Below, in pieces: positions 1,535 to 43,730 of a DNA stretch of 43,730 nucleotides. Source of the stretch: a virus. The DNA lies in UHGV virus genome UHGV-1360180, one strand, 5' to 3'. Positions within the stretch are counted from its first letter, which is position 1. Every line of letters begins with the position of its first letter. Under the pieces are notes generated by a model. It ran no database searches. It had not been told where the DNA came from and saw only the letters and a list, made by a program, of their open reading frames with translations. A program made the translations under genes and the position numbers.

Positions 1535-1767
1535 TTCGTAAAATGTTCAGGGTGCTTGGCGGGCTTGTGGCCTTCGTAGTTTACTGGGCAATGTTAGTGC
1601 CGCTTCTAGTTATCCTTCTTCCGCTCACGGTCTACGTTGCGATTAAGTACGAAACGGTAGACCCCGAGCAACTTGACTCAACGAAGGAAATTAAATGGGT
1701 GCAGAATTTGGAGGGGCCTTTCGAATACGTACTGATAGTTGAGAAAATAACTGGCTGGAAGGGTTGA
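1531..1767 (+). CDS. Small membrane protein
   Basis: ORF track 1501..1767; ATG at 1531 preceded by GAGGAGGA; strongly hydrophobic segment LGGLVAFVVYWAMLVPLLVILLPLTVYVAI. Confidence 0.4.
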   Translation: MIRKMFRVLGGLVAFVVYWAMLVPLLVILLPLTVYVAIKYETVDPEQLDSTKEIKWVQNLEGPFEYVLIVEKITGWKG

Positions 1768-1792
1768 CACCTGAATAGTTAACTATTATAGT
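1764..1792 (+). promoter_or_regulatory. Sigma70-like promoter TTGACA-N17-TATAGT with AATAGTTAACTATT palindrome in the spacer
   Basis: TTGACA 1764-1769, TATAGT 1787-1792; perfect 14-bp palindrome 1774-1787; 55 nt upstream of SSB-like gene. Confidence 0.45.
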
Positions 1793-5167: not shown

Positions 5168-5448
5168 CTAAAGAGGGCCGCATCCAGAAATACGCAAAAG
5201 AGCGATTCGAGGCCCTCGGTGGCCTCGTACGTAAGATGGTGTATGAGGGTAGAAACGGAGCGCCTGATCTGCTAGTAGTACTTCCGGGAGGGGTGATATG
5301 GTTCGTCGAGGTGAAGAAAGACGAAAACACGGAACCGGAGGCCCATCAGTTGCGGGAACACAAACGGCTTCGTAAACGTGACGCAAATGTTTTTGTAGTA
5401 GGAACAAAAGAAGAGGTTGACGACCTAATAGCGAACTATTATAGTTAG
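5164..5448 (+). CDS. VRR-NUC domain nuclease
   Basis: 94 aa; PDLLVV...WFVEVKK motif (PD-(D/E)xK core) typical of VRR-NUC proteins. Confidence 0.6.
   Translation: MTKEGRIQKYAKERFEALGGLVRKMVYEGRNGAPDLLVVLPGGVIWFVEVKKDENTEPEAHQLREHKRLRKRDANVFVVGTKEEVDDLIANYYS
5417..5445 (+). promoter_or_regulatory. Promoter-like TTGACG-N17-TATAGT with AATAGCGAACTATT palindrome
   Basis: Same architecture as 1764-1792 and 43090-43118; lies in 3' end of VRR-NUC gene upstream of ORF at 5479. Confidence 0.35.
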
Positions 5449-5478
5449 TCCTACACCAACAATATAAGGAATTGAGAA

Positions 5479-5670
5479 ATGAAACACGAATATGACCGCA
5501 AACCAGCACGTGACATCGTACCGGGTGACATGATTTTCAACGTTAAGACCCGTCGGCCTGTTGCCGTCGATACGGTGTTCGTCGAGTCGGACGGTAAACT
5601 GGTTATTGAAGACGTAACCGGAAACGTTACGGCGTTCGGGCGTAAAGAGCTGGTACTGGTGGCGAAATGA
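5479..5670 (+). CDS. Hypothetical protein
   Basis: 63-aa ORF, ATG start, GGAAT/GAGAA upstream. Confidence 0.4.
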   Translation: MKHEYDRKPARDIVPGDMIFNVKTRRPVAVDTVFVESDGKLVIEDVTGNVTAFGRKELVLVAK

Positions 5671-6596
5671 ACTATTACAATGAGTGGGATAAAGGCGCAG
5701 CCGCGTGGCTGCGTGAATTAATAAAGCAGGGTCACATACCTTTTGGAATTGTAGATGAAAGAAGCATTACCGAAGTTAAACCTGAAGACCTCGACGGGTT
5801 CACCCAGTGTCATTTTTTCGCTGGTATCGGCGGCTGGCCTCTCGCGCTCAGACTTGCGGGAGTTTCGGAAGATACGCCTCTCTGGACGGGAAGCCCGCCT
5901 TGCCAACCGTTTAGCGCGGCAGGAAAGCAACTCGGACAGTTCGACCCAAGACACCTCGCGCCCGTATTCCTTGACCTCATCAGCGAGTGCTGCCCTCCAG
6001 TCCTCTTTGGTGAACAGGTTGCGCCAGCAATTGCAAAATCGTGGATGTGCGACTTACAAACTCACCTGGAGGGAGAAGGCTACGCCGTCGGGTTTGCGGT
6101 ACTCCCAGCTTGTAGCGTCGGCGCGCCACACAAACGCGACAGACTTTTCTTCGGCGCGCACAGACTGGCCCACACCGGCGGTATCACTGATAACAAACGA
6201 CGCGAACATGCGCAGCACAGACGGCAGGACGAAACCGAACAAACTGGGATGGGCTGCCGCGTTGGCGGCTTGGCCTACACCGACAGCGAACGACTACATG
6301 GGGAGCGGAAAGACAGGTATTCGCAAGGACGGGAAGGACAGGACATTCGACAGGCTGGACTACTCGACGGAGCAGGGTCTGAAAATAACACAACCAATTC
6401 GCATCACGGCTTCTGGTCAGATGCTGACTGGCTCGGATGCCGTGATGGAAAGTTCCGGCCAGTTGAACCCGGCACATTCCCGCTGGCTAATGGGATACCC
6501 GCCAGAGTGGGACGATTGCGCGGTTATGGCAATGCCATCGTCCCGCAAGTAGCCGCTGAATTTATAAAGGCGTTCATGGGGGCGGTAAATGAGTAA
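5667..6596 (+). CDS. DNA (cytosine-5)-methyltransferase with internal frame discontinuity
   Basis: Motif I FFAGIGG, motif IV GSPPCQPFS, motif VI-like LFGEQV, motif VIII PHKRDRLFF and motif X GYGNAIVPQVAAEF in frame of 5667; WPTP repeats and motif IX RWLMGYPPEWD lie in the +1 frame (ORF 5755..6552). Confidence 0.65.
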   Translation: MNYYNEWDKGAAAWLRELIKQGHIPFGIVDERSITEVKPEDLDGFTQCHFFAGIGGWPLALRLAGVSEDTPLWTGSPPCQPFSAAGKQLGQFDPRHLAPVFLDLISECCPPVLFGEQVAPAIAKSWMCDLQTHLEGEGYAVGFAVLPACSVGAPHKRDRLFFGAHRLAHTGGITDNKRREHAQHRRQDETEQTGMGCRVGGLAYTDSERLHGERKDRYSQGREGQDIRQAGLLDGAGSENNTTNSHHGFWSDADWLGCRDGKFRPVEPGTFPLANGIPARVGRLRGYGNAIVPQVAAEFIKAFMGAVNE

Positions 6597-10194: not shown

Positions 10195-12822
10195 TTAACT
10201 AAAACCGTTGCTGAATCCGTCGGAGAAACCGCGACCGAAAGGCGCGACGCCGTCGTATTTATAGAAATCTGCTTCGTAGTTAATACCGGTTATTTTAACC
10301 GTTCTGTCATCCCCGGGGTCAACTGTAGAAACAAGAATCATCTGAGCATTATGCCTTGCTTCGTTGCCGAATGAAAACTCAGTTTTTAGTGCACTATTCC
10401 CCGTGTAAATTGCCTCCTGTGGGGCGGAGAGCATAATCACCTCGCGGTCGTGGCTCCCTTGAACAACGGCAACACTCTGAACACCACCGTCGCGCTTTTT
10501 GAGAATCAGTGAGTGGTCGTCACCAGGGGTAAATGTAACTGGCTGAGAAAGAGTAAGCGTAAGCCCATTAACGGCGATTACATAACCGTCTTGGGGCGCT
10601 ACGCGTGAACCTTTAACTACGCTTATGGCGCGCCCTGGCATTGCAAAAATCCCTTCTTCTGTCGCCGTGAATGATACTGTTACCTTCTTCAACAGGTTTT
10701 TCTGGTAGCGGCGGTATGCAGCCCAGTACGCCTGTTGATAATTACGGATACCTTTAGAGTCGTACGTTTCGGTATTAACGCCACCTTCTGCTGGGATGCT
10801 GATTGTCTCTTTGACGTTAGTATCCGGGTCGATGTATGAAAACTTGAGACTATCGTATACCTGGGCGTCGTTAAACGTGCGCGTCCACTTCTCCGTAGCG
10901 GTAGTTTTGCTGCGGTGGGTGAATACCATCTCGGGGCCAATCCGCGGGCGTTCAAAGTCCAGAAGAATATCCGCCCCTCTCCGGTATGGGGTGCAGAAAA
11001 TAGCATCAGCTATTGTGCTGATAATATCCTGCATGGTCATTTTATAATCGTCAAAAGTGTAGCAGAATTGGCCTGCCTCTGCGCTACCGAAATAGTTTTC
11101 TATCTCGGTCTGAGTCGCTAACAACTTGTCCATATTGGATGTTGTTAGGTTGAGATTACCTACTACCGGGTCGCGGGCAAGACGGATTAAGGACTGAATC
11201 GCCTGAGTATTCGGCGTCATAACCGTGTCGAATGTGCCGTTGCCGAGGTATTTGTACACCATCTCTGTGGCAATCATACGTAGTTGCGGCTGCTTAATCT
11301 CCGCGGCCCGCGGCGTCTGCTTACGTGCAGAGTGCACGGTAGTACGATTGCCGTAATGCGGCGTAGTGTCGCGGACCTGACCGTAAAGGTTGATATAGGA
11401 AACCTCGTCTACTACGGTCCCCTCGAAACTGAGGTCAAGGCTAGTAACGCGGCGGGCGCGCACTCTAACTTTAGACCTCACTGGCAAGTCGGCGTAAATA
11501 GTAACACCCGTGTAATCCGCAGAACGACCTGATATAGCGGCCTGTTTTGCGTAAACTTCTCCGTACGGCACGCCTGTTTCATCGAGGAGTTGGTATTGTA
11601 GCTCCACAGTTACAGATGTACGCAATTTACTGCCGTTGTCTTTATACATACCGTTCGCTGCCGCTATGTTGGCTACTACACGTTCAACTTCCAGGCGGTT
11701 TAAGGTAGTCCAGTCCGTTAACGACTTATCGTAGGTGTTAGATGGCGAAATCCATGCTTCGGTCCCTTGCGTTAAAGGAGTGAATCCCGATGGCAATTTT
11801 TGCCATTCTGACAACATCCCTCCAACGGCAACCCTTACCTCAAAGTCGTCTACGTAGGTGACGGTATAGCTACCACTGACGTTAGCTACGTCTTTTACCA
11901 GAATAAGGTTAAAAACAGCTATGTCACCCACTGATAAAATCTCAGAGAAAGCAGAGTCGCCAGTGTTATCCCGGACTACGCCAGTTGTTCCTTGCAATGA
12001 AATCTCACCGGTATCGCTGGGGTTAACCCTGATGTCGTTCTGAGCTTTCAAAACAGCGCCATCTACCTCGTTTGAAGCAATAGTTATGTATAGATGCTGA
12101 CCGATAGGCTCCCCCACCATAAGCTGAGGCGTATTTGTGTTATTAGGCGATGTAAATGGCGCGTACACTGCGACAGAAGTTCCTGTAATCTCCTGTACTT
12201 TAGTATCGCCGTCAGTGATGTCTTCGGCCTTAATATCAAGATACCCGCGACCTGCGTCATAGTAGCCGTATTCGACTACCACACCTGCGTCGTTGAAGAC
12301 CTTATACGTAGTCATGAGGTCATTAGGGATAGTCTGGACCCTGCCGCAAATATCATACGACCGTTCATACGGACGCGGTTTATTGTTTCGGTCCGTCAGG
12401 CTGTTGTTGGGGGACTCAGCCTGCTGGTTCGCTAAACTCGTTTTAGGCGTTTTCTGCGACGGAGAAATCAACTTGGTAACAAATTTAAGCACACCCAAAG
12501 GGTCCAGGAGTTTACCCAGAAAACCACCACCGCCGCCAGCACCCTCGATGATATGGAAAACGTCATCTTCTTTCAGCGCTTCGAAGTTTTCCGTTACTTC
12601 CGTATCCTCGCCAATCTCGCCACGGTAAATACGCACAGGTACCCCGTCTGGGATGTTAGCAACGACGTATTCCATCGGGGGTACGTTATACCGTTTGCGG
12701 TCAAAAGTACCGTCTTCGTTACGGGTGTAATGTAATATCAGCGCCAAAATTCTATCTCCGCATAAGTTTCGCGCAAGTCTTCCAGTCGGTCTAACCGTAC
12801 CTGACGACTCGCTAGCTCGCAA
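10195..12822 (-). CDS. Tail tip / central tail fiber protein (J-like host specificity protein)
   Basis: 875 aa, position after tail assembly genes; poly-Gly stretch, C-terminal GFSDGFSNGFS. Confidence 0.5.
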   Translation of the reverse strand: MRASESSGTVRPTGRLARNLCGDRILALILHYTRNEDGTFDRKRYNVPPMEYVVANIPDGVPVRIYRGEIGEDTEVTENFEALKEDDVFHIIEGAGGGGGFLGKLLDPLGVLKFVTKLISPSQKTPKTSLANQQAESPNNSLTDRNNKPRPYERSYDICGRVQTIPNDLMTTYKVFNDAGVVVEYGYYDAGRGYLDIKAEDITDGDTKVQEITGTSVAVYAPFTSPNNTNTPQLMVGEPIGQHLYITIASNEVDGAVLKAQNDIRVNPSDTGEISLQGTTGVVRDNTGDSAFSEILSVGDIAVFNLILVKDVANVSGSYTVTYVDDFEVRVAVGGMLSEWQKLPSGFTPLTQGTEAWISPSNTYDKSLTDWTTLNRLEVERVVANIAAANGMYKDNGSKLRTSVTVELQYQLLDETGVPYGEVYAKQAAISGRSADYTGVTIYADLPVRSKVRVRARRVTSLDLSFEGTVVDEVSYINLYGQVRDTTPHYGNRTTVHSARKQTPRAAEIKQPQLRMIATEMVYKYLGNGTFDTVMTPNTQAIQSLIRLARDPVVGNLNLTTSNMDKLLATQTEIENYFGSAEAGQFCYTFDDYKMTMQDIISTIADAIFCTPYRRGADILLDFERPRIGPEMVFTHRSKTTATEKWTRTFNDAQVYDSLKFSYIDPDTNVKETISIPAEGGVNTETYDSKGIRNYQQAYWAAYRRYQKNLLKKVTVSFTATEEGIFAMPGRAISVVKGSRVAPQDGYVIAVNGLTLTLSQPVTFTPGDDHSLILKKRDGGVQSVAVVQGSHDREVIMLSAPQEAIYTGNSALKTEFSFGNEARHNAQMILVSTVDPGDDRTVKITGINYEADFYKYDGVAPFGRGFSDGFSNGFS

Positions 12823-17297: not shown

Positions 17298-17330
17298 TTG
17301 CACACCCCAATATAATAGGGTACTATTCAC
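17298..17330 (+). promoter_or_regulatory. Conserved 33-bp promoter TTGCAC-N17-TACTAT with embedded AATAGGGTACTATT palindrome
   Basis: TTGCACACCCCAATATAATAGGGTACTATTCAC; near-identical copies at 26525, 29515 and, on the minus strand, 39602; 25 nt upstream of island gene at 17355. Confidence 0.5.
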
Positions 17331-17354: not shown

Positions 17355-17681
17355 ATGCGTAAATTAGTATTAGCTCTGGGGTTTATGTCTTTTGCTGCTT
17401 TTGGGTCTCCGTGCGAACAGGTATTTAGTGAATCTGTTCTTATTACTTCTGGCGTACTTGAGAAAGCCGACCCTACTATTGTAAAGGCGTTTAAGGACTC
17501 TACAGTTCGTGAATGTGAGGCCGCCGTAGAGGTCGGTAAATCGGGCCTACCCCCGCAAGCCGTAACGTACACGGTGATACGTTCGGTAGAGAAAAACGGA
17601 GACGCGTTTTACAGCCTACTGACGGCCACCCGCCTGCAAATGGTAATGACTGGGTGGGCGATAGGCGTGGAAAGTAAATAG
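17355..17681 (+). CDS. Small secreted/periplasmic protein
   Basis: 108 aa; N-terminal signal-peptide-like MRKLVLALGFMSFAAFG; RBS GAGGA; opposite strand to flanking tail genes. Confidence 0.5.
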   Translation: MRKLVLALGFMSFAAFGSPCEQVFSESVLITSGVLEKADPTIVKAFKDSTVRECEAAVEVGKSGLPPQAVTYTVIRSVEKNGDAFYSLLTATRLQMVMTGWAIGVESK

Positions 17682-17746
17682 TCGCCTTTATTTAAAGGAA
17701 TGCACTGTGGTTAAATAGGACAAATCCTAAACACGAGGACGTAAGA

Positions 17747-18877
17747 ATGGCCCAGAAGAAAATAACCGACGAACAGTTACAGGAAGAATTGAACGCCGGT
17801 ATGAAGAATATAGATATAGCTAGTAAATACGGCATCTCAGACCGCGTTATTCGTATTCGTAAGGCGAAGCTGGCTAAGAAAGGGGTCGGTCACGGGCGAG
17901 ACGTTAGTCACCTTGTGCCGGACGGCTACAAGATTAAAGGGACGTCGTCCCTGGTGGACGAGTTTGGCAACACTAAGTTGCAATGGGTTAAGACTGACAC
18001 TGACGCCGAACGTCAGGTCGAGTTGATGAAAGCCGTAATTGAGGGCATGAAGTCGGAGATTACGCCGGTCGCCCCTGTTAAAGCCGTTCGCGCCAAACGC
18101 GACGACAAACTACTCAATCTTTACACGGTATCTGATTTCCATCTCGGTATGCTGGCCTGGGCCGACGAGAGCGGCGACGACTGGGACATGAAGATTGCGG
18201 AAGACCTGTTCTCCCGTTGGTTCGATGCTGCATTTCAGAAAGCACCGGATGCGGGCACGGGCGTTATTAACCTGCTTGGCGACCTTGCGCACTTCGATAG
18301 CCTGGATGCGGTTACGCCAGCGAGTGGCCATGTTCTTGATGCGGACACGCGCTATCAGAAACTGGTCCGCTACATGATTCGCATGGTCCGCCGTGTTATT
18401 GATATGGCGCTGGTTAAGCATAAAAATGTTCGCTTGCTTATCGTGCAAGGTAACCACGACGAGAGTGGCATGATTTGGTTGGCTGAGATGTTCAGTACGC
18501 TGTACGACAATGAGCCGCGTGTGTTCGTCGATACGTCGCCGGATGTTTACAAGATGGTGCAACACGGCAAAACGACGCTGTTCTTTCATCACGGGCACAA
18601 GGCACGATTCGACGCTATCGAACCGGTTATGATCGCCAAGTTCCGTAAAGCCTTCGGCGAGAGTGTTTACAGCTACGCCCACGTAGGCCACCTGCACCAC
18701 CAAAAGATTGTAGAGAGCCGTAATATGGTTGTTGAGCAACACCGCACCTTAGCGGCTAAAGACGCCTACGCCTCTCGCGGCGGATGGATGTCAGGCCGTA
18801 GTGCAAATGTAATTACTTATAGCGCCGAATATGGTGAGGTCGCTCGTTTAACTATTTCACCGGAGATGCTGGGATGA
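17747..18877 (+). CDS. Metallophosphoesterase (SbcD/Mre11-like calcineurin-fold) with N-terminal HTH-like domain
   Basis: 376 aa; motifs VSDFHLG, GDLAHFD, GNHD, HHGH, GHLHH; N-terminal ~45 aa HTH-like (NIDIASKYGISDRVIRIRKAK). Confidence 0.6.
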   Translation: MAQKKITDEQLQEELNAGMKNIDIASKYGISDRVIRIRKAKLAKKGVGHGRDVSHLVPDGYKIKGTSSLVDEFGNTKLQWVKTDTDAERQVELMKAVIEGMKSEITPVAPVKAVRAKRDDKLLNLYTVSDFHLGMLAWADESGDDWDMKIAEDLFSRWFDAAFQKAPDAGTGVINLLGDLAHFDSLDAVTPASGHVLDADTRYQKLVRYMIRMVRRVIDMALVKHKNVRLLIVQGNHDESGMIWLAEMFSTLYDNEPRVFVDTSPDVYKMVQHGKTTLFFHHGHKARFDAIEPVMIAKFRKAFGESVYSYAHVGHLHHQKIVESRNMVVEQHRTLAAKDAYASRGGWMSGRSANVITYSAEYGEVARLTISPEMLG

Positions 18878-19104
18878 CTTCAAAATACAACCGAACAATG
18901 ACAAACACTCACGGCAGCACTATGACAGTAGACGTCTACGATGTGCTGCGCGCCTTCGATATCCGGGACCCGGCGTTACAGCACGCATTGAAGAAGCTAT
19001 TGTGCATGGGCTTGCGAGGCCACAAAGACACCGGAACAGACTTAGCGGAAGCAATCGAAAGTCTCGAGAAGTTACGGGAATACCGAAGTAACATTGACGA
19101 GTAA
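18874..19104 (+). CDS. Hypothetical protein
   Basis: 76 aa, ATGA-coupled to upstream gene. Confidence 0.4.
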   Translation: MTSKYNRTMTNTHGSTMTVDVYDVLRAFDIRDPALQHALKKLLCMGLRGHKDTGTDLAEAIESLEKLREYRSNIDE

Positions 19105-26205: not shown

Positions 26206-26524
26206 GTTTCTCCTTTCTCGATAAGTAAAGCCCCGCCATAAAGCGGGGCGCTAGGCCTTATCATTTAAACATAGAAACGGCGTAATCTCAGTAAACCAGT
26301 TACTTTTTACACAAGCAATAGAGTATGGCCATTCCGAACGCGTCAGCGTAACTACACTCAAGACTTACGTCCCGCTCCGTTACCTGCCCGCGCCGCGGTC
26401 GCTTGTTCATACTTCACAAGCTCAGGTGGAGCTTAGCACATTTTCAGTGAAAAGTCAACTATTCGAATAGTTTATTCTAACATTTACAATTCGGTGGAAT
26501 AACTGGAATAGGTTAATAAATAGT

Positions 26525-26557
26525 TTGCACACCCCAACATAATAGGGTACTATTCAC
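26525..26557 (+). promoter_or_regulatory. Conserved 33-bp promoter (TTGCAC-N17-TACTAT) with AATAGGGTACTATT palindrome
   Basis: TTGCACACCCCAACATAATAGGGTACTATTCAC; upstream of plus-strand island. Confidence 0.5.
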
Positions 26558-26594
26558 TTACACCAACAATGTTAACTTAAATGGGAGATGGAAA

Positions 26595-26756
26595 ATGAAA
26601 TTAGCAAAAAGAATTACCGTAAATACTAATTTAAGTTCGAAAAATGGGGACAAACGTAAGTTCCGCCGTAAAATGCGTCAGATTGTTAAACTTGACTACA
26701 TTTTCGAAGAAACGATTGCACTAGTGGCAAACGCTGCCCGTAACTGGGGGCGCTAA
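26595..26756 (+). CDS. Small basic protein (53 aa)
   Basis: Manual translation MKLAKRITVNTNLSSKNGDKRKFRRKMRQ...; RBS GGGAGATGG; first gene of island. Confidence 0.3.
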   Translation: MKLAKRITVNTNLSSKNGDKRKFRRKMRQIVKLDYIFEETIALVANAARNWGR

Positions 26757-26757
26757 T

Positions 26758-27222
26758 ATGATGTATGCAATTTACGTAGCGGCGATATGCGCTGCTAACT
26801 TTTCGGTAACTGTGTTTGGTCCGTTAGCGACACCGGTAAATGCCTTTCTACTTATTGGGCTTGATTTCGTAATAAGAGATAAGTTGCACGAGAGGATTGG
26901 CGTACAAAAAATATTCATACTGATACTAGTAGCTGGCATTATAAGTTTCTCCATAAACCCGGCAACCGGAAAGATTGCTGTGGCAAGCGTTGTTGCCTTC
27001 GCTTGTGCTGCCATCCTGGATGCCGTTGTTTACCAGGCACTAATCAATAAAAAGTGGCTAGTTAAGTCAAATGTAAGTAATACCGCGGCCTCGGCGGCGG
27101 ACTCTTTTATTTTCCCACTAATAGCTTTCGGTTCTTTCATGCCGCTAGTCGTACTGGGCCAATTCGCGGCTAAGGTTTTTGGCGGAGCTTTGTGGTCTTT
27201 CTTGTTGAGGAAAATTAAATGA
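26758..27222 (+). CDS. Polytopic membrane protein, candidate queuosine-precursor transporter (YhhQ/DUF165-like)
   Basis: 154 aa, ~4 hydrophobic helices; translationally coupled to TGT-like gene; family assignment from recall, not a search. Confidence 0.4.
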   Translation: MMYAIYVAAICAANFSVTVFGPLATPVNAFLLIGLDFVIRDKLHERIGVQKIFILILVAGIISFSINPATGKIAVASVVAFACAAILDAVVYQALINKKWLVKSNVSNTAASAADSFIFPLIAFGSFMPLVVLGQFAAKVFGGALWSFLLRKIK

Positions 27223-27953
27223 CGGTGCATTACCACGGGGGTCCTATTTGGGGTGGGGATGAGCTTATAAAAGCATTGTACCGTGGGGGTGGCGCTCTGG
27301 TGTCATATGCCCGCCCTGACCAAATACAAAAAATCGCCGCCTTGAGATGTAAATTAGTGTTGGACAACGGAGCTTTTTCGACATGGAAGAAAGCACCTGA
27401 CAACATAGACTGGAGCGCCCATTGGGCAGGATATTATGATTTTGTCGGAGAGTGGTTCAGTCGTATTGAGTGGTTCATTATACCGGACGTTATAGAGGGC
27501 ACGGAGGAAGAGAACGACGCATTAATAGAAACTGTCCCAGATTGGTTAAGGTCTAAGGCAGTCCCGGTGTGGCACAGTGACGAAAGCATAAGAAGACTAG
27601 TAAAGCTGTGCCGTGGGTTCAATCGGGTAGCGATAGGTTGCTGCGGACCGCACAGGGCCATACGGTCTAAGTCATGGGAGAAAAGAATGGACCAGGCGTT
27701 TAATGCGGTTTATAGAAACAGAAAATTGGATGTAAAACTCCATGGCCTTAGAATGCTGGATGGGAGGGCTCTAAGCCGTTATCCTTTCGACAGCGCTGAC
27801 AGTACAAACGTAGCTATAAATGTGCCAAAAACTAAAGCAAGACTACCTAACATAACAGACAAACTACATCGAACCGCTATAATGAGGCACACCATAGAAA
27901 TGGTTAAACCCCCTACAGTAACGGAATGGTTACTTAAAACTAAGGCCCCTTAA
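27219..27953 (+). CDS. tRNA-guanine-transglycosylase-like protein, candidate DNA 7-deazaguanine transglycosylase (DpdA-like)
   Basis: 244 aa; LVLDNGAF resembles TGT substrate-binding motif (TDSGGFQ); acidic IIPDVIEG; adjacent to transporter-like gene. Confidence 0.5.
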   Translation: MTVHYHGGPIWGGDELIKALYRGGGALVSYARPDQIQKIAALRCKLVLDNGAFSTWKKAPDNIDWSAHWAGYYDFVGEWFSRIEWFIIPDVIEGTEEENDALIETVPDWLRSKAVPVWHSDESIRRLVKLCRGFNRVAIGCCGPHRAIRSKSWEKRMDQAFNAVYRNRKLDVKLHGLRMLDGRALSRYPFDSADSTNVAINVPKTKARLPNITDKLHRTAIMRHTIEMVKPPTVTEWLLKTKAP

Positions 27954-28427: not shown

Positions 28428-29524
28428 TATTCCCCTTTCAGATAATCAGCAACACGTTTATCGAGTTCCGCCATCTGCTTAAGCGTCAGCGGATTCCCGA
28501 AACCATCTACAGATATTACGCGAAACTCTTCCGGCGATATACCGCTGTTACGGAAAATCTTACCGCGAACAGGGCCGAGCGCCTGGTCCTGGAACCATGC
28601 CGGTTGCTGTTTCAGGAACTCGTAATAGGTTGTGTCTGCGCTTACTTGTGTGCCGCCGTCCGCGCCCTTAGCAGCGCGTTTTGCCCCTTTATCGAGGAAG
28701 TCGAACTCTGAACTGATTACCGGAGCCGTACACGACCGACAGTTCGGATGGGCTGGTGGCATCGGCCCTTTACCGATCTCCCACGTCATTCCGTCTCTGG
28801 CTCTGCAAATCGTACTGGTACGGCTATCAAGCGTTGACACCCACTCGTACTTCTCGATGATGTCGTCGTTCTGGCGGTACGTCTCGTTACGGGCTTCGTT
28901 GGACACATGGGACAGGGCAGTGCGGATTACGGTAGCCGCGTTACGTTCAGAGATATCAGCCAGGCCACCGGCACCAACAACATTCTTTACAATCTGCCGC
29001 GTTGTCTGACCCTGAACAAAGCCCATCTTAACGCCGGTTACCAGGCGCGATACCTCTGTTTCACCCCAGCCCGACATCAGCTTAGTGAAGTCAACAGGCT
29101 TGTCACCCAACGATAAGGGTTGAAACTCGGCCGCGGCCCACACCTGCTCGGCAGTAGGCGTAACAAATTCCGCGTCTACGTTGGCGGTAAGTGTCTTTGC
29201 GTTCCACTCAGCCTCGTACGCCGCCAGTTCCTTAAGGTCTTCTGTCAGTTTTGTTTGCCAGTCGCCTGTAAGTCCGGTTAACGCTTCTTCAAGGTCGCGT
29301 AACAGTTTATTCAGTCGCGCAGTGCTGCGCCCATCGTCGCCGAATAGCAGAACCTGCCGTTTGATTTCATCTCGCATTTCCTGAATGAACGGCGCGAGGT
29401 CTTTCACCTCACCGGATGCGGTGCGTTGCAGCCATATCTGGTGGCTGATTAGGGATGTAAGTAAGCTCATAAGCCCTCCTGTCGTATCGACAGTGTAACG
29501 CATAAAAATAATATTTGCAGACAC
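28427..29524 (-). CDS. Head morphogenesis protein (minor head protein family, putative)
   Basis: 365 aa directly downstream of portal gene, the usual position for this family. Confidence 0.45.
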   Translation of the reverse strand: MSANIIFMRYTVDTTGGLMSLLTSLISHQIWLQRTASGEVKDLAPFIQEMRDEIKRQVLLFGDDGRSTARLNKLLRDLEEALTGLTGDWQTKLTEDLKELAAYEAEWNAKTLTANVDAEFVTPTAEQVWAAAEFQPLSLGDKPVDFTKLMSGWGETEVSRLVTGVKMGFVQGQTTRQIVKNVVGAGGLADISERNAATVIRTALSHVSNEARNETYRQNDDIIEKYEWVSTLDSRTSTICRARDGMTWEIGKGPMPPAHPNCRSCTAPVISSEFDFLDKGAKRAAKGADGGTQVSADTTYYEFLKQQPAWFQDQALGPVRGKIFRNSGISPEEFRVISVDGFGNPLTLKQMAELDKRVADYLKGE

Positions 29525-29547
29525 CAGTATAATAGGGTACTATTCAC
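29515..29547 (+). promoter_or_regulatory. Conserved 33-bp promoter (TTGCAG-N17-TACTAT variant) with AATAGGGTACTATT palindrome
   Basis: TTGCAGACACCAGTATAATAGGGTACTATTCAC upstream of single-gene island. Confidence 0.5.
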
Positions 29548-29585: not shown

Positions 29586-29900
29586 ATGATTGATTATCGT
29601 GCTCGCGCCACAAAAGCGGAACAAGAGAACGCTGTTTTAAGAGATAAATTAGCAAAAAAGCCTAATTTTGCTTGGTTCGTAGAGCAGGTAAGGTCTATGC
29701 TTAAAATACGTGCTGACGCACCTTTTAACGAAATAATAGCTAAGATTAAGGTATTGCGCGACAATCAAGAGCTATATAGAGAGGGTGCCGCAGTTCGTAA
29801 GTCCAACGATGAAGATGCAGAAAGATACTTCAATGAGGGTGTAGAGGAAGGAAAAAGAATGGAACGCGATAGAATTAAAAAACTAATAGGAAAAGTCTAA
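29586..29900 (+). CDS. Hypothetical protein (single-gene island)
   Basis: 104 aa, charged/helical; RBS GAGAGG; own promoter and terminator; opposite strand to flanking portal/head genes. Confidence 0.45.
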   Translation: MIDYRARATKAEQENAVLRDKLAKKPNFAWFVEQVRSMLKIRADAPFNEIIAKIKVLRDNQELYREGAAVRKSNDEDAERYFNEGVEEGKRMERDRIKKLIGKV

Positions 29901-33592: not shown

Positions 33593-33829
33593 TCATCCCC
33601 CGCTCTCCTCTTTAGCAATACGTTGCTCTGTTTTAGTGATACCACGGCGCGTGAATAACACCGGGCTTGTCTTAACGTGCGTCATCAGACGGTTGTTATA
33701 AATTACGTGGCGCTCGCAATCAACGTCTTTGCTGTACTTCGCAATCGTCATTTCGTTGATGCCGGTTTGTCGGCATGCCTCCGCCATCGTGCCGAATTCT
33801 TTAATCAGGTTCGGAATGCTGGTAATCAT
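33593..33829 (-). CDS. Hypothetical protein, possible small DNA-binding protein
   Basis: 78 aa; segment AEACRQTGINEMTIAKY resembles HTH. Confidence 0.3.
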   Translation of the reverse strand: MITSIPNLIKEFGTMAEACRQTGINEMTIAKYSKDVDCERHVIYNNRLMTHVKTSPVLFTRRGITKTEQRIAKEESGG

Positions 33830-35359: not shown

Positions 35360-35395
35360 AAATATAATAGGGTCTAGGGTAATAGTCAACTAGTC
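35360..35395 (-). promoter_or_regulatory. Promoter-like TTGACT-N17-TATATT (minus strand)
   Basis: Reverse complement reads TTGACTATTACCCTAGACCCTATTATATT; contains ACCCTATTAT related to the conserved promoter core. Confidence 0.3.
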
Positions 35396-38251: not shown

Positions 38252-38283
38252 TGAATAGTAGCCTATTCTATCTTAGTGTGCAA
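38252..38283 (-). promoter_or_regulatory. Promoter of the TTGCAC-N17-TACTAT class (variant) with AATAGTAGCCTATT palindrome
   Basis: Reverse complement CTTGCACACTAAGATAGAATAGGCTACTATTCA. Confidence 0.4.
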
Positions 38284-38598
38284 GTAAATTTTATTGGTGT
38301 TTTAGGGATAAGCGTTCGCTACGAATCCAGTAGTACCTCGGGCGTCTCGCCCACTGACGCCATCGCATAACACGGTACTTGTTGCCGTCTGACGCAACGA
38401 TAAGCCCGAATCGCTTTTCTCCGTTTCTACCGGTCCAGGTTACGATGTCATTCAGTTTCATTGTTGCATCTCTCGCAATAGTTGCTTCGATTGTTGCGTT
38501 TGGTGAAATAGAACAGAAATGAGAAAAATGATACGCTGCTACACAGCAGCGTAAGTCACTCAGTAAAATAGTAACCTATTGACCTGTTACACCACCTG

Positions 38599-38796
38599 TT
38601 ATACCAGCGATGGCGGCTCAGGTAACGGCATCCAGTGGGTTACATCGTCAATATCGATGTTTGAGTTACGCGGCGCCCAACAATCCCAGAAACCGTCGCA
38701 GTCCCACCACATAACCTCGACGTTATCTCCATCTGAAACAAGAACATCTTCAAAATCACCAGGCATACGCTCACTACACTTAACCCACTCGCTCAT
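38599..38796 (-). CDS. DUF551-like phage protein
   Basis: WVKCSERMP ... HWMPLPEPP pattern recalled from DUF551-family proteins. Confidence 0.45.
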   Translation of the reverse strand: MSEWVKCSERMPGDFEDVLVSDGDNVEVMWWDCDGFWDCWAPRNSNIDIDDVTHWMPLPEPPSLV

Positions 38797-39580: not shown

Positions 39581-39601
39581 TCCTCTGTCTCGTTTCGATA
39601 A

Positions 39602-39634
39602 GTGAATAGTATCCTATTATGTTGGGGTGTGCAA
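39602..39634 (-). promoter_or_regulatory. Conserved 33-bp promoter (TTGCAC-N17-TACTAT), leftward early promoter
   Basis: Reverse complement TTGCACACCCCAACATAATAGGATACTATTCAC. Confidence 0.5.
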
Positions 39635-39882
39635 GAGAATAGTTACGTTGCCGTTGTGATTCTTTGGGGAAGGTTGCGCCTTTATTCTTATTACTTGGTA
39701 ACTAAAGGGCAGGCCTTAAGCCTGCCCAATAATCGTTACATTTTTACGGTTGCGAATCTACGGCACATTAAGAAAATCATATACTTAAGAGATATGCTGC
39801 CGATGAGAATAGAGCTTGCCCATGGCAACCGGAGATACTTAGGAAGGAAAGTTACGATAATTCTCATGTTCAGTAAGCCTGT

Positions 39883-39914
39883 GTTTAACCCTTTGCTTGT
39901 CGCACGGGTTAAAC
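39883..39914. other. Stem-loop with 9-bp stem in divergent intergenic region
   Basis: GTTTAACCC-14 nt-GGGTTAAAC; second hairpin GGGCAGGC-CTTAA-GCCTGCCC at 39707-39727. Confidence 0.4.
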
Positions 39915-40004
39915 ATTCTTACAAGGTGAACAGGAATCAAAGTAACTAAGATATAGAAGCACCTTAAACGAAGATTTTCTTAATGTCAATAGGTGCGATT
40001 ATGT

Positions 40005-40033
40005 TTGATTTCCCATTATTCGCAATGTATACT
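40005..40033 (+). promoter_or_regulatory. Sigma70-like promoter TTGATT-N17-TATACT (rightward)
   Basis: Upstream of HTH gene; spacing 17. Confidence 0.4.
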
Positions 40034-40065
40034 TGGTTTCGTTAACTGATAATGAGGGTTTGAGA

Positions 40066-40236
40066 ATGACACAGAATGAGGTAGCGGAGCGTATAGGAGT
40101 TACTCGTCGCACGCTGAATAACTGGTTAAAGAGCGGGAAGTTCCCGGATTGCTGTATTCGCATTATGGGTCGCCGTCAGCCAGGTACGTTTGACCCGGAG
40201 AAGGTGGAAGCGTGGATTAAGGAGAACGTGAAATGA
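40066..40236 (+). CDS. Helix-turn-helix DNA-binding protein (excisionase/AlpA-like fold)
   Basis: ORF track 40033..40236 (TTG); likely ATG at 40066 after GAGGG. EVAERIGVTRRTLNNWLKSGKFP HTH signature. Confidence 0.5.
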   Translation: MTQNEVAERIGVTRRTLNNWLKSGKFPDCCIRIMGRRQPGTFDPEKVEAWIKENVK

Positions 40237-40466
40237 CCGAGTTCCAGTCACGCGTATTTACGGCGGTCGTTTCGTTAACACGTAAAAAAGGGTCGTGCAG
40301 CGTTATCGACTTGCGCCGCAGTTATTTTAAGTACTATAGTTCTGCCATTATTGAAGGGTCATTGAGGGTACTGGTTAAATCTGGTGCCGTGAAAAATGTT
40401 GGTGGGAAATATAGTGCCGTTGCCGAAGTTCGCGGAATGACAGCCACTTTAGAAGACCTGGAATAA
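40233..40466 (+). CDS. Hypothetical protein
   Basis: 77 aa, ATGA-coupled. Confidence 0.4.
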   Translation: MTEFQSRVFTAVVSLTRKKGSCSVIDLRRSYFKYYSSAIIEGSLRVLVKSGAVKNVGGKYSAVAEVRGMTATLEDLE

Positions 40467-40524
40467 AAGAAAGCCCCGACGCGGTGAACGCCGAGGCCAA
40501 ATTACTTGCTGAAGGAAATACAAC

Positions 40525-42792
40525 ATGTCCGATGTAATTTTATCCTACTCGTGGTCCCGTCGCAACGCGCGGGCAGAGAAAAAGGATATAAACGTCAGAA
40601 CCACTCACACGGCAACACTGGACGACCTGAAAGAGCTACTCCAGCCGCTTGATGCTGTCCGTGATGGGGTTAACCCGAAGACCGCGCCGGGATATATCAC
40701 CGCCGCGTGCGACTCGACACACAGCACCGTAAAAGACCCGGAAACAGGTGACTTTAAGCATGCGCGTAAAGGCTTCTTCTATCGCTGTGACGCGTCTGTA
40801 ACTAAATCGTCACTGGCGTATCTTGACTTCGACAGCGCAACGCCGGAAGAGTACCAGGAAGCAGTGCGCCTGGTTAAGCGAGGCCGTAAAGCCATGTGCG
40901 TTTACACCACGGCATCCCATACCGATGAGTCTCCACGCTTTCGCGTCGTCATGCCGCTGGCCCGCCCGGTCGAAGGCGGTGACATCATCCGCGTACGTCA
41001 CGGGTTGCTGGAGCACTTCTTCAAAGGCATGGGCGCGGACCGCAGCGGGTTTACTCTGTCCCAGCCGATGTACCTGCCACCGGTCGGCTCTCAGGTTATC
41101 TGGTCGCGCCGAAACGACCTGATTGACCCTGACGAGTTACTGGAAGGCGTACCGGATTACGAGGTGAGCAGCGCATCTGACTACCAGATACCGGAAGAAC
41201 TGCGCACCGCGTTTACGGACGCGTTCGAAGCACTGGCGTTCGAGTATGGTGGCGTCATGACGCCCCGCGGTCTGAAGATGCCAGCTACGCCAGAACACGC
41301 AGAGAACTACAGCGACCCGACGCCGCGTCCGGACGACTTCCTGCTATGCTTCCCACGTGAAGGGTACGAAGCGCCTAACGTAACCATGATTCACGACACC
41401 GACATTACGGCAACCGAAGGCATGTCACCGAAAGAGGTGTGGAAGTATGCGTGCGATGCGACTGGGCTGCCGTTCAGTGAAGTCGCTGAGGCAATTGGCT
41501 GGGGCGCGCGTGAATCAGTTTCATGCAGCCTCGACGACCTAGAAGACGACGAGGACCCAGAGGAGGACGAGCTACCGGAACCGGTAAAGGCTGATTTCGT
41601 CGTCGAAGGGTATGTGCCATCAGATTGTATCTGGGATATCGTCGGGGAATCTGGCACGTACAAATCGTTTTATACACTGGGGATGATGTACCTTAGCGCC
41701 GCAGGATACCGGTTTGCGGGAGCTGATACGCAGCGTTGCCACCATTTTTATATCGACGGTGAGGGCGGCGCAGCTACCCGCACACGTATAGATGCACTCG
41801 CGGCTAAATATGGCGAGGAAGGTAAAGATTATGTACATGTTATCGACATGGGCGAAGTCGGAAAACTGAAAAACCTGATTAAGTTAATGCGTGAAACTGC
41901 GGGTGACGAGCCAATTGGCATGGTCGCATTCGACACCCTTAACCAGACGCTGGCCCTGACGATTGATAAGTTCGACGAGAACAGTTCATCGACGGCAATC
42001 GGCATGGGTAAAGTCATTGCCATCCTGAAAGAAGTACGTGATGCGACTAAAGCTGCGGTAGGCGTTGTCCACCATACGCCGAAGGGTGGAAAGAAGGCCC
42101 GTGGCAGTGGGGCGCTGTATGCGGGCGTCGACGTGGAGCTGACAATCGAACGCGCTACCGACCGCCAGATAAACGTATACCACTCTAAATTTAAGCACGG
42201 GCCTCAACAGAAGACGGTTGGTATGGTGTTGGAGTCAGTACAGTTCCGTGAAGCCCCGCCGCCGAAAGAGTATCGCGCGGTTGAGTTCCTGGGTAGCACA
42301 GAGGAATACGGCACAATCGTAAACCTCGACCTGCCTGAACCGCACAAGGCGCTTGTACTGATGCCGTGGGGCTTCGAGCCGTTCAAAACTGACGAGGAGA
42401 AAGAGCGGGAAGAAGGGCTGACAAAGGAAGGTAAAGAAAACGTACGTAAAACCGTAGAGAACGCCGTCAACAGTTCGGAAGCCACGATACTGGCAGCGTT
42501 TGAACTGGCAGAAGGAACCTACAACGGCAATGAAGGTATCACGGTGGCCGCAGCGAATAAGCTCGCTCAGTCAGACCCCAACGCAAAGGCGTTTAACTCC
42601 AAAGAAGCCATAGAACGCGGGAAGATTAAGAAAATGGTTGAGGCCGGGTATCTTGTTCCGGGGACTGACGAAAACAATCAGATAATACCTGGCCGCTACC
42701 GGCTTAACACCAGGATAACGGATAACAAGATTCCGAAGACAATATACGAACCGAATGAAATGCTGGTGGTGACAGCGGAGGATTTGGAATAG
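40525..42792 (+). CDS. Primase-helicase (primase-polymerase-like N-domain fused to RecA-like/RepA-like ATPase)
   Basis: 755 aa; DxD-type acidic motif LAYLDFDS and HTDESPRFRVVMPL; C-terminal Walker A-like GESGTYKS, Walker B MVAFDTL, HHTPKGG. Confidence 0.65.
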   Translation: MSDVILSYSWSRRNARAEKKDINVRTTHTATLDDLKELLQPLDAVRDGVNPKTAPGYITAACDSTHSTVKDPETGDFKHARKGFFYRCDASVTKSSLAYLDFDSATPEEYQEAVRLVKRGRKAMCVYTTASHTDESPRFRVVMPLARPVEGGDIIRVRHGLLEHFFKGMGADRSGFTLSQPMYLPPVGSQVIWSRRNDLIDPDELLEGVPDYEVSSASDYQIPEELRTAFTDAFEALAFEYGGVMTPRGLKMPATPEHAENYSDPTPRPDDFLLCFPREGYEAPNVTMIHDTDITATEGMSPKEVWKYACDATGLPFSEVAEAIGWGARESVSCSLDDLEDDEDPEEDELPEPVKADFVVEGYVPSDCIWDIVGESGTYKSFYTLGMMYLSAAGYRFAGADTQRCHHFYIDGEGGAATRTRIDALAAKYGEEGKDYVHVIDMGEVGKLKNLIKLMRETAGDEPIGMVAFDTLNQTLALTIDKFDENSSSTAIGMGKVIAILKEVRDATKAAVGVVHHTPKGGKKARGSGALYAGVDVELTIERATDRQINVYHSKFKHGPQQKTVGMVLESVQFREAPPPKEYRAVEFLGSTEEYGTIVNLDLPEPHKALVLMPWGFEPFKTDEEKEREEGLTKEGKENVRKTVENAVNSSEATILAAFELAEGTYNGNEGITVAAANKLAQSDPNAKAFNSKEAIERGKIKKMVEAGYLVPGTDENNQIIPGRYRLNTRITDNKIPKTIYEPNEMLVVTAEDLE

Positions 42793-42803
42793 GTAAAAAG
42801 AAA

Positions 42804-42818
42804 GGGGCGTTAAGCCCC
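42804..42818. terminator. Terminator hairpin shared by convergent genes
   Basis: GGGGC-GTTAA-GCCCC preceded by A-run, overlapping stop of repressor gene. Confidence 0.4.
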
Positions 42819-43025
42819 TTCACCGAACGCCAACCACTTGGCGTCTACTTGCAGCACTTCCGCCAGTTTAAACAGCGTCGCCGGGCGGACGTCCTGAGTT
42901 ACCCCGAGCGCAAGCTGGTTAATCGCGCCCTGGGAAACGCCGGCCAGGACCGCAAGACGGCGCTGGGAGATGCCTAGTTCTTTACGGCGTTGTTCTACAC
43001 GGATGCCTAGTTCGGATGGTTGCAT
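42810..43025 (-). CDS. XRE-family HTH transcriptional regulator (Cro/CI-like)
   Basis: 71 aa; LGISQRRLAVLAGVSQGAINQLALG HTH; AAGGAG RBS. Confidence 0.7.
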   Translation of the reverse strand: MQPSELGIRVEQRRKELGISQRRLAVLAGVSQGAINQLALGVTQDVRPATLFKLAEVLQVDAKWLAFGEGA

Positions 43026-43055
43026 GTCGATTACTCCTTAGTCAGTTGATATGTG

Positions 43056-43118
43056 AATAGTACCATATTAATTATTTTAGAAAAGCCCATTGACAAGTGA
43101 ATAGTTCGCTATTATAGT
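43056..43118. promoter_or_regulatory. Divergent control region with two operator-like palindromes and rightward TTGACA-N17-TATAGT promoter
   Basis: AATAGTACCATATT 43056-43069 next to repressor gene start; AATAGTTCGCTATT 43100-43113 within spacer of promoter TTGACA 43090-43095 / TATAGT 43113-43118. Confidence 0.45.
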
Positions 43119-43149
43119 TAGCCCATACCAAACGAGAGGAGAGAAACAA

Positions 43150-43677
43150 ATGTTAGAGAAATTCTTAGTATTACTGGAACGTTTCGTAGTTGCGCATGAA
43201 CTGATTGCTGCGAATAGCGTGAAACAAGCATCATCGAAAGAACTGGACACAAAACTAAATATCGCCATTGCCAAGCACGAGGTGGCTAAAGAGAAACTTG
43301 AACTCGAACATACATTAGAATTACAAAAATCCAGCATTAAAAAAGAAATCCCGGTAGAAGGTGAAGACGTCGTTGACACTAAACCAGAAGAAGAGAAGCC
43401 TAAACGTAAGCCACGTAAAGCTAAAGTAGAGGAGCCGACGCCAGAGCCGGAAGAAGAGAAAGAAGAAGTCGATTACCAGTCTCTGCGTGACCAGATTCAG
43501 GCTATTGATGATGCGATTAACGAAGGTCCGAGCGATGCAGCGTGCGATGATTCTGATGAACTGCTGGAAGAGTTCACCGGTAAGAAAATGAAGATTGCCG
43601 CGATTAAAGACGAAGACCTGGCTGAATACCTGGAACGCCTGACGGCAATCAAGAACAAGTACTTCGAAGAAGAATAA
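43150..43677 (+). CDS. Highly acidic protein, function unknown
   Basis: 175 aa; GAGAGGAGAG RBS; Glu/Asp-rich C-terminal half, KPKRKPRKAK basic patch. Confidence 0.45.
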   Translation: MLEKFLVLLERFVVAHELIAANSVKQASSKELDTKLNIAIAKHEVAKEKLELEHTLELQKSSIKKEIPVEGEDVVDTKPEEEKPKRKPRKAKVEEPTPEPEEEKEEVDYQSLRDQIQAIDDAINEGPSDAACDDSDELLEEFTGKKMKIAAIKDEDLAEYLERLTAIKNKYFEEE

Positions 43678-43685
43678 CTATCTCG

Positions 43686-43707
43686 CGGCCTTCTGGCCGC
43701 TTTAACT
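43686..43707 (+). terminator. Rho-independent terminator
   Basis: GCGGCC-TTCT-GGCCGC followed by TTTAACT. Confidence 0.4.
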
Positions 43708-43730
43708 GAGGGTCGGAATTATGATTTACC

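Follow-up and report, generated by a model that had tools for sequence, protein, structure and literature searches.

A dispersed 14-bp palindrome over predicted promoters of a Kagunavirus genome, a candidate operator for its 434 Cro-like XRE protein

Which protein reads the palindrome AATAG-N4-CTATT that recurs along the viral genome UHGV-1360180? We addressed this question over the whole stretch of 43,730 nucleotides, hereafter called the window, where a gene for a 71-aa XRE-type helix-turn-helix (HTH) protein, xre, lies at 42810..43025 with two copies of the palindrome in its divergent region, as an earlier note on this DNA had described. That note had proposed that a dimeric HTH protein, most simply XRE, binds these sites and represses promoters genome-wide. 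We find that the palindrome is a cis element laid over the core promoter and distinct from the elements that RNA polymerase recognizes. It is, in our opinion, very probably a protein-binding operator, and we give a probability of roughly 0.6 to the reading in which XRE is its binder and acts as a repressor; the analysis itself shows the sites, confined to promoters in varying registers and conserved, together with the homology and predicted fold of XRE, and from these we infer that XRE binds, that it does so as a dimer and that it represses. Megablast of positions 40500-43730 (393 phage records) places the window in Kagunavirus (K1G/K1H-like, Guernseyvirinae), with Kagunavirus LM08P1 and LM08P2 as the top relatives (94%), followed by phages K1G and K1H (91-92%). 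Kagunaviruses are regarded as strictly virulent siphoviruses of E. coli.

The set of palindromes is highly non-random. An exhaustive scan of both strands returned nine exact copies (Table 1), the same nine that had been listed earlier and no others, and none was found in 100 dinucleotide-preserving shuffles of the window (0.00). With one mismatch allowed, 13 matches were obtained against 1.03 expected, the additional ones being at 43056, which the earlier note had also reported, 35381, 26450 and 11091. Those at 35381 and 26450 are both intergenic and both kept in relatives; the one at 11091 lies inside a tail gene and is probably a chance match. On our gene map, for which the annotation of fFiEco02 was transferred to the window by tblastn, 7.1% of the window is non-coding and eight of the nine exact copies lie wholly within this share (binomial P ~6e-9). 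The ninth, at 5427, is found in the final 22 bp of the VRR-NUC gene, immediately before the next gene. The earlier note had allowed for further copies in coding regions; no exact one turned up there, and the motif is clearly not as frequent in coding DNA as outside it. Of the ten intergenic gaps that measure 100 bp or more, nine contain an exact or one-mismatch copy. With the nine full sites masked, lone AATAG/CTATT half-sites still show the top intergenic enrichment among pentamers made of four A/T and one G/C (4.5-fold, the median being 1.4), and they form clusters at 26459-26519, 35366/35381, 38477/38507 and 39638-39988.

The position of the palindrome within promoters, which throughout this work are predictions from sigma-70 hexamer scans, is the first argument for a separate element. 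Eight of the nine exact copies, as well as those at 43056 and 35381, overlap predicted sigma-70-like hexamer pairs with 17-bp spacing. The statement that every copy overlaps a promoter-like sequence therefore stands for these eight exact copies and fails for the one at 38567. Two classes of palindrome-bearing promoters can be distinguished, both with a ribosome-binding site and a start codon 25-55 nt downstream. Class A (43100, 1774 and 5427) is laid out as TTGACA/G, a 4-nt linker, AATAG-N4-CTAT and TATAGT, with a spacer of 17 bp and 11/12 or 10/12 matches to the consensus; the palindrome covers -25..-12 with its position 14 at -12, AATAG-N4-CTA falls in the spacer, and the last base alone is shared with the -10. 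Class B (17314, 26541 and 29531 on the plus strand, 39605 and 38254 on the minus strand) consists of TTGCAC/G, a 10-nt linker and AATAGGnTACTATT; its -10, TACTAT, is formed by palindrome positions 8-13, and the palindrome covers -19..-6 with position 8 at -12. The two classes have the palindrome in common and not its flanks. A third register is used by distant relatives, in which the palindrome usually begins 7 nt past the -35, so that its right half is the -10 (S|TAWTAT) and position 11 stands at -12. The linker between the -35 and the palindrome is thus of 4, 10 or, in most promoters of the distant relatives, 7 nt, and the -10 begins at palindrome position 14, 8 or 11. Sigma-70 does not read the spacer. 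Because the palindrome takes three registers relative to -12, we consider it as a separate cis element and not as a sequence read by the polymerase.

The second argument comes from the pattern of conservation. The half-sites show no change over 27 sequences from Kagunavirus, made up of the window, L001 and 25 IMG/VR loci, and a further 13 from Jerseyvirus. Variation is found at the central bases and in the -35 linker, whose length also differs (4 or 5 nt). The overall conservation of these regions is high, and the half-site footprint is accordingly of limited resolution. The extended consensus in Kagunavirus is GTGAATAG-N4-CTATTATA. A two-fold symmetric element that lies in every case between -35 and +1, in a non-fixed register, is what a repressor operator looks like.

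The candidate reader, XRE, is a homologue of 434 Cro by sequence and by predicted fold. It matches Pfam HTH_3 (PF01381) over residues 11-65 with 48.1 bits for a cut-off of 23, and its closest sequence match among solved structures is 434 Cro (E=4.9e-7; 38-41% identity), which has the same length of 71 aa. A single-sequence AlphaFold2 model (pLDDT 84) places helices at residues 5-17, 21-28, 32-39, 48-57 and 62-66, which gives the five-helix lambda-repressor-like HTH_3 fold shared with 434 Cro, and the top Foldseek hits of this model are 2cro, 1pra and 3cro (TM 0.72-0.79, 36-41% identity). In the alignment with 434 Cro, XRE keeps the Gln at the start of the recognition helix (Q28) and has Gly at position 29 and Gln at position 33, the latter as in 434 repressor. 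The half-sites ACAAG and AATAG differ at positions 2-3, a comparison that we offer as a rationalisation. GenBank records already label the xre gene as 'transcriptional repressor'.

The likeness to 434 extends to the DNA. The 434 operators are 14 bp long and of the ACAAG-N4-CTTGT type, in which the outer bases are conserved and the centre varies. The palindrome described here is also of 14 bp, built as 5-4-5 with the outer 5 bp conserved and the central 4 bp variable, and the divergent promoter region of xre likewise comprises one strong site and one weak one. On the other hand, 434 has two clusters of three adjacent operators, whereas at least 10 single sites are dispersed here over 43.7 kb, one per promoter. 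Moreover, 434 is a temperate phage with a lysis-lysogeny switch and a cI partner, while there is no cI, integrase or prophage here (neither integrase nor cI is present in the annotations), and the half-site sequence is different.

We compared 55 IMG/VR loci fetched around the helicase-primase gene. An XRE ortholog accompanied by the divergent region with O1 (43100 in the window) and O2 (43056) is present in nearly every related locus covering the region, down to ~27% helicase-primase identity, and in those loci it always adjoins the divergent class-A promoter of the acidic-protein operon. The candidate regulator and the O1/O2 pair, hence a site on its own promoter, co-occur in Kagunavirus, Jerseyvirus, Cornellvirus and the distant loci L051, L052 and L053/56/58. 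The O1 site has an orthologous site in all Kagunavirus loci, again with invariant half-sites and a variable linker and centre. As to O2, every clade with the motif has a degenerate copy on the xre promoter, which begins ~42-46 nt upstream of the ATG wherever the start is a standard one; in the window it overlaps a predicted xre promoter that is either a weak class B (-10 TACTAT, 43057..43062, minus strand) or TTCACT-16-TAAAAT at 43101..43074. From centre to centre, O1 and O2 are 44-45 bp apart in Kagunavirus, except in L015 (43 bp). Jerseyvirus has 55 bp between them, and Cornellvirus, L051, L052 and L053 have 63-65 bp; the three distances amount to ~4.2, 5.2 and 6.1 helical turns. The steps between clades are of about one turn, which suggests that a same-face phasing may be maintained.

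The motif itself has clade-specific variants, each found at several sites per genome: AATAG in Kagunavirus and Jerseyvirus, mostly AATAC in L052, and ATTAS/STAAT in Cornellvirus. Jerseyvirus SETP3 has five exact copies with the extended form ATAATAG-N4-CTATTA(A/T), in the class A and class B registers, and a further site with a 7-nt linker in both directions; in Kagunavirus, one flank has changed from ATA to GTG at most sites. For the generalised motif AWTAS-N4-STAWT, we counted 6 copies against 0.1 expected in L051, 4 against 0.0 in L052, 3 against 0.0 in L056 and 5 against 0.6 in the Cornellvirus locus L003. The gene order around xre also differs. In Cornellvirus (L003 10587-11036) and in distant clades (L042-L059), xre is the first gene of a same-strand operon leading into helicase-primase; the helicase-primase module of Kagunavirus and Jerseyvirus lies in inverted orientation, converging with xre, and has gained an HTH_17 gene and its own promoter devoid of operator. 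The Klebsiella phage klb_E (L004) was dropped as a relative, its cro/cI region being unrelated and of temperate type.

We propose the following scenario. On entry, host RNA polymerase with sigma-70 would fire the strong phage promoters, class A promoters leading to expression of the replication genes, and class B promoters to that of the leftward small early genes and of the three islands in the structural block. As XRE accumulates, a dimer would occupy the single operator at -25..-12 (class A) or -19..-6 (class B) and exclude polymerase, and those operons would be turned down. The weaker O2 on the xre promoter, separated from the strong O1 of the divergent promoter by a roughly whole number of turns of the helix, could provide negative autoregulation. 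A Kagunavirus RNA-seq study covering 5-120 min of an asynchronous infection (PMC12645636) is too coarse to test such a shut-off.

Several observations weigh against XRE as a simple genome-wide repressor. First, the Kagunavirus consensus is asymmetric, with GTG on one flank and ATA on the other, which a symmetric homodimer alone does not explain. Second, the XRE proteins of Kagunavirus and Jerseyvirus are only ~50% identical and differ at four positions of the recognition helix (SQGAINQ and SQSLITH, respectively), yet these genera have the AATAG/CTATT core in common; no simple code relating recognition-helix residues to half-sites emerged across clades. Third, the clade L047-L050 has XRE and no clear palindrome, and L042/L044 have an XRE ortholog with only an ATTAS-type variant next to xre and no exact motif. 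Fourth, the exact copy at 38567 has no convincing promoter. Finally, the near-copy at 35381, which Kagunavirus and Jerseyvirus both retain, the mismatch falling in opposite halves of the palindrome in the two genera, lies on a promoter that comes after the lysis-cassette terminator and leads into small genes and then terminase. This is likely the packaging/structural operon promoter, and a picture of 'early off, late on' is consequently incomplete. Of the genome-wide promoter association put forward earlier, the island promoters all have a site; at 35381 the copy has one mismatch, the copy at 38567 lacks a promoter, and the promoter of the helicase-primase operon (40005) has no full palindrome but only an AATAG half-site at 39988. 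The central proposal, an operator read by a dimeric HTH protein, most simply XRE, with a negative effect on promoters across the genome, withstood all the computational tests that we applied, and the earlier interpretation is supported in part, by the varying registers, the fixed half-sites, the homology to 434 Cro, the conservation of XRE with O1/O2 and the absence of the HTH_17 protein from motif-bearing genomes.

The copy at 38567 deserves a remark of its own. On the minus strand it is preceded by two tandem 12-bp repeats, GGTATAACAGGT GGTGTAACAGGT (~38581..38604), and it stands ~14 nt before a strong terminator hairpin (38553-38532, minus strand). The arrangement (38532-38604) is kept in Kagunavirus and exists in a degenerate form in Jerseyvirus. 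It could specify a short RNA of ~45 nt or act as a roadblock.

Among the alternatives, the one that survives best, while remaining unlikely in our view, is an operator read by another protein, namely the HTH_17 protein, a NinH-like protein (33593..33829) or a host transcription factor. The HTH_17 protein was at first attractive given a phyletic match over three genera: the Kagunavirus and Jerseyvirus proteins are 86% identical and hardly differ in the HTH segment, a likeness that would match their common AATAG core, and the protein is missing from Cornellvirus, itself without the exact motif. We nevertheless rejected it. In the Kagunavirus loci L017 and L039 its gene is replaced by unrelated ones, while 3 and 6 exact copies of the palindrome and a 98.6%-identical XRE are kept; it is absent from all the distant clades, for instance L051, L052 and L056 with their 3-6 related palindromes; and its own promoter does not have the site. 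The replacement in L017 (9355-9940) and L039 (9358-9943) concerns the HTH_17 gene and its neighbour, in place of which are found a 47-aa Cys-rich (zinc-ribbon-like) and a 149-aa open reading frame (ORF), and the first genes of the helicase-primase operon thus appear to be a swappable module. The NinH-like protein is below the Pfam threshold, and its gene is distant from all conserved site pairs. With a conserved host factor, the AATA-N6-TATT core should be kept even where the XRE recognition helices differ between clades, and this is what we see. However, Jerseyvirus (AATAG/CTATT) and Cornellvirus (ATTAS/STAAT), both Salmonella phages, carry different variants of the motif, and for this reason a host factor seems to us less likely than a reader encoded by the phage. 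To our knowledge, no enterobacterial regulator has a site of the type ATAG-N4-CTAT (OxyR has N7 and MntR N6).

A more doubtful alternative is that the motif is nothing but the promoter consensus of the phage, read by an RNA polymerase and needing no separate binder. This interpretation is in print in a specific form: in the Kagunavirus fBC-Eco01, PHIRE recovered seven sites, PP1-PP7, with the consensus tgAATAGTa-ccTATTat-T and the same 20-mers (TGAATAGTACCCTATTATAT and similar), which the authors labelled 'phage RNAP promoters' and assigned to a phage-encoded RNA polymerase (PMC9825357). These sites are the same motif at orthologous positions. In contrast with that assignment, no RNA polymerase gene is found in the mapped genes of the window or in the annotated genes of fFiEco02, SETP3 and Cornellvirus, and the sites have good sigma-70 -35 and -10 hexamers with 17-bp spacing, and on these grounds we rejected a phage RNA polymerase promoter. 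No link to XRE or to an operator was drawn in that paper; the motif is thus already known, and what is new here is its link with XRE and the comparative evidence for this link. A consensus read by a polymerase would agree with the right half of the palindrome being the -10 hexamer itself in distant relatives, and with the string CCCTATTATATT also preceding a -10 where the left half-site is missing (35361 promoter). Against it, there are the three registers, the location of the class A palindrome mainly in the unread spacer, and the symmetric conservation of the upstream half-site, which is not known as a requirement of the polymerase.

Some related readings of the promoters were also discarded. 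A class B -10 consisting of the perfect TATAAT just before the palindrome would leave TTGCAC only 7 bp away, and there is no other conserved -35. Bidirectional promoters arising from symmetric -10s, as described by Warman, do not fit either: the -10-like halves are ~10 bp apart and do not overlap, and a passable reverse -35 exists at 17314 only, where a reverse GTTACA-17-TATATT promoter is also predicted; class B sites may still provide a reverse promoter for late genes. An RNA structure or known RNA family is disfavoured, the stem comprising 5 AU-rich pairs, most copies being upstream of the predicted start sites, and Rfam giving no match in the window, the 38567 region included.

One could also assume that XRE, as the binder, is a global silencer and not a temporal switch, and that it holds the phage as a quiescent episome (carrier state or pseudolysogeny) with neither cI nor integrase. 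This idea, which comes from the fact that near-copies cover essentially every promoter, that of terminase and the structural genes included, seems to us quite improbable. We found no Kagunavirus DNA in 5,426 complete E. coli genomes, and the sole match in a bacterial assembly is a record of 44 kb, labelled 'plasmid', which consists of an entire phage genome. This record (CP088689.1, L060) is a complete Kagunavirus genome that was submitted as a circular molecule, 'plasmid pC16EC0033-2', of an E. coli isolate from blood. It would be a trace of the quiescent state if XRE were a global silencer; taken by itself, it could reflect a carrier state, pseudolysogeny or contamination.

Least credible of all is that the repeats are recombination linkers, i.e. 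duplicated promoter cassettes serving moron or island exchange in which the palindrome was inherited from an ancestral cassette and is not selected: ~35 bp are indeed common to the three island promoters at 85-95% identity, the island cargo differs between the window and fFiEco02, and the 5427 and 26541 promoters have the leader string TACACCAACAAT in common, but classes A and B share the palindrome and not the flanks, the half-sites have stayed constant where the central 4 bp and the linkers have diverged, and the element is kept in clades with very little nucleotide similarity. A use as linker and a use as operator are not mutually exclusive. Each plus-strand island has a near-identical promoter/operator cassette of class B at its start (17298-17330, 26525-26557 and 29515-29547) and a bidirectional terminator at its end, from which it seems that the cassettes have a second use, as linkers for module exchange. 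The leader string is found at 5446-5470 (class A) and 26558-26575 (class B), and hints at a common origin or at a 5' untranslated element shared across promoter classes.

Table 1. Palindromes, predicted promoters and genes of the window considered in the text
Feature	Coordinates	Strand	Context	Basis
O1, exact copy AATAGTTCGCTATT	43100..43113		spacer of class-A TTGACA-17-TATAGT (43090..43118, +), acidic-protein/replication operon	
O2, one mismatch, AATAGTACCATATT (AATATGGTACTATT in xre direction)	43056..43069		starts 44 nt before xre ATG	
Exact copy	1774..1787		spacer of class-A TTGACA-17-TATAGT (1764..1792, +), before DUF2815 and DNA polymerase genes	
Exact copy	5427..5440		spacer of class-A TTGACG-17-TATAGT (5417..5445, +); followed by small gene, C5 methylase, SNF2 helicase	
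Exact copy	17314..17327		spacer and -10 of class-B TTGCAC-17-TACTAT (17298..17326, +), island 1	
One mismatch, AAAAGTCAACTATT	26450..26463		then lone AATAG half-sites at 26466, 26507, 26519, upstream of island-2 promoter	
Exact copy	26541..26554		class-B TTGCAC-17-TACTAT (26525..26553, +), island 2	
Exact copy	29531..29544		class-B TTGCAG-17-TACTAT (29515..29543, +), island 3	
One mismatch, minus strand ACTAGTTGACTATT	35381..35394		over -35 of TTGACT-17-TATATT (35389..35361, -)	
Exact copy	38254..38267		class B on -, -35 38283..38278, -10 38260..38255; leftward genes towards lysis cassette	
Exact copy, orphan	38567..38580		no acceptable -35	
Exact copy	39605..39618		class B on -, -35 39634..39629, -10 39611..39606; leftward small early genes (39580 downwards)	
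Sigma-70-like promoter TTGATT-17-TATACT	40005..40033	+	HTH_17/helicase-primase operon; conserved in Jerseyvirus	
xre	42810..43025	-	71-aa single-domain HTH_3 protein; convergent with helicase-primase operon	tblastn transfer, translation, Pfam, structure search
HTH_17 gene	40066..40236	+	excisionase/AlpA-like, 56 aa; rival candidate binder	Pfam, comparison
Operon: HTH_17 protein, hypothetical protein, helicase-primase	40066-42792	+		tblastn transfer
Replication genes	43150 past right end, resuming at left end to ~8230	+	order: acidic protein (43150), DUF2800 nuclease, DUF2815, DNA polymerase, VRR-NUC, C5 methylase, SNF2 helicase	tblastn transfer
Tail, head and packaging genes	8263 to ~33240	-	structural block	tblastn transfer
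Island 1	17355-19104	+	breaks up structural block; hypothetical protein, metallophosphoesterase; region divergent from tail-chaperone/tape-measure genes	gene map
Island 2	26595-27953	+	breaks up structural block; 53-aa ORF, Vut_1-like protein, 244-aa ORF	gene map
Island 3	29586-29900	+	breaks up structural block; 104-aa ORF; promoter region divergent from head-morphogenesis gene	gene map
Small genes and lysis cassette	up to 39580	-		tblastn transfer

A few features of the gene map are worth mentioning. The largest ORFs of the window are those of DNA polymerase A, helicase-primase and tail proteins. The biggest non-coding stretch (39581-40065, 485 bp) is located between the divergent class-B promoter at 39605 and the promoter of the HTH_17 operon at 40005; within it are several AATAG half-sites without a partner and, at 39707-39727, a hairpin rich in GC. 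The C5 cytosine DNA methylase gene (5667-6596; Pfam DNA_methylase, 60.6 bits), which follows the small gene downstream of the 5427 promoter and precedes the SNF2 helicase gene, has no counterpart in fFiEco02. In island 2, the window encodes a Vut_1/YhhQ-like membrane protein (26758-27222) where fFiEco02 has a sliding-clamp-like gene instead.

A parallel can be drawn with the dispersed operator regulons of other phages, i.e. the C1 operators of P1, the gp71 stoperators of mycobacteriophage L5 and the conserved inverted repeats of phiC31. In these systems one phage repressor acts at many scattered single sites, mostly over promoters; the phages are temperate and the repressor maintains lysogeny. 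The sites of P1 and L5 are asymmetric, and the L5 stoperators act within transcription units. The sites described here are likewise single, scattered genome-wide and for the most part overlapping promoters. They differ in being symmetric and of the 434 type, and in belonging to a phage family regarded as strictly lytic.

An operator model of this kind is not conceptually surprising, and it is testable in a subfamily that is popular for therapy. The Guernseyvirinae (Kagunavirus, Jerseyvirus and Cornellvirus) are among the phages most frequently put forward to combat E. coli and Salmonella in therapy and in food biocontrol, and their transcription programme is undescribed. If the model is true, one 71-aa protein and one 14-bp site would explain the co-regulation of nearly all early and middle operons, the cargo of the islands included. 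It would also put right an annotation error that genome papers are passing on, whereby the sites are presented as 'phage RNAP promoters' and an XRE 'repressor' raises concerns about lysogeny. The system would offer a compact orthogonal set of repressor, operator and promoters with natural strength variants, as well as a set of naturally diverged proteins of the Cro type and their operators, in which the evolution of binding specificity could be studied.

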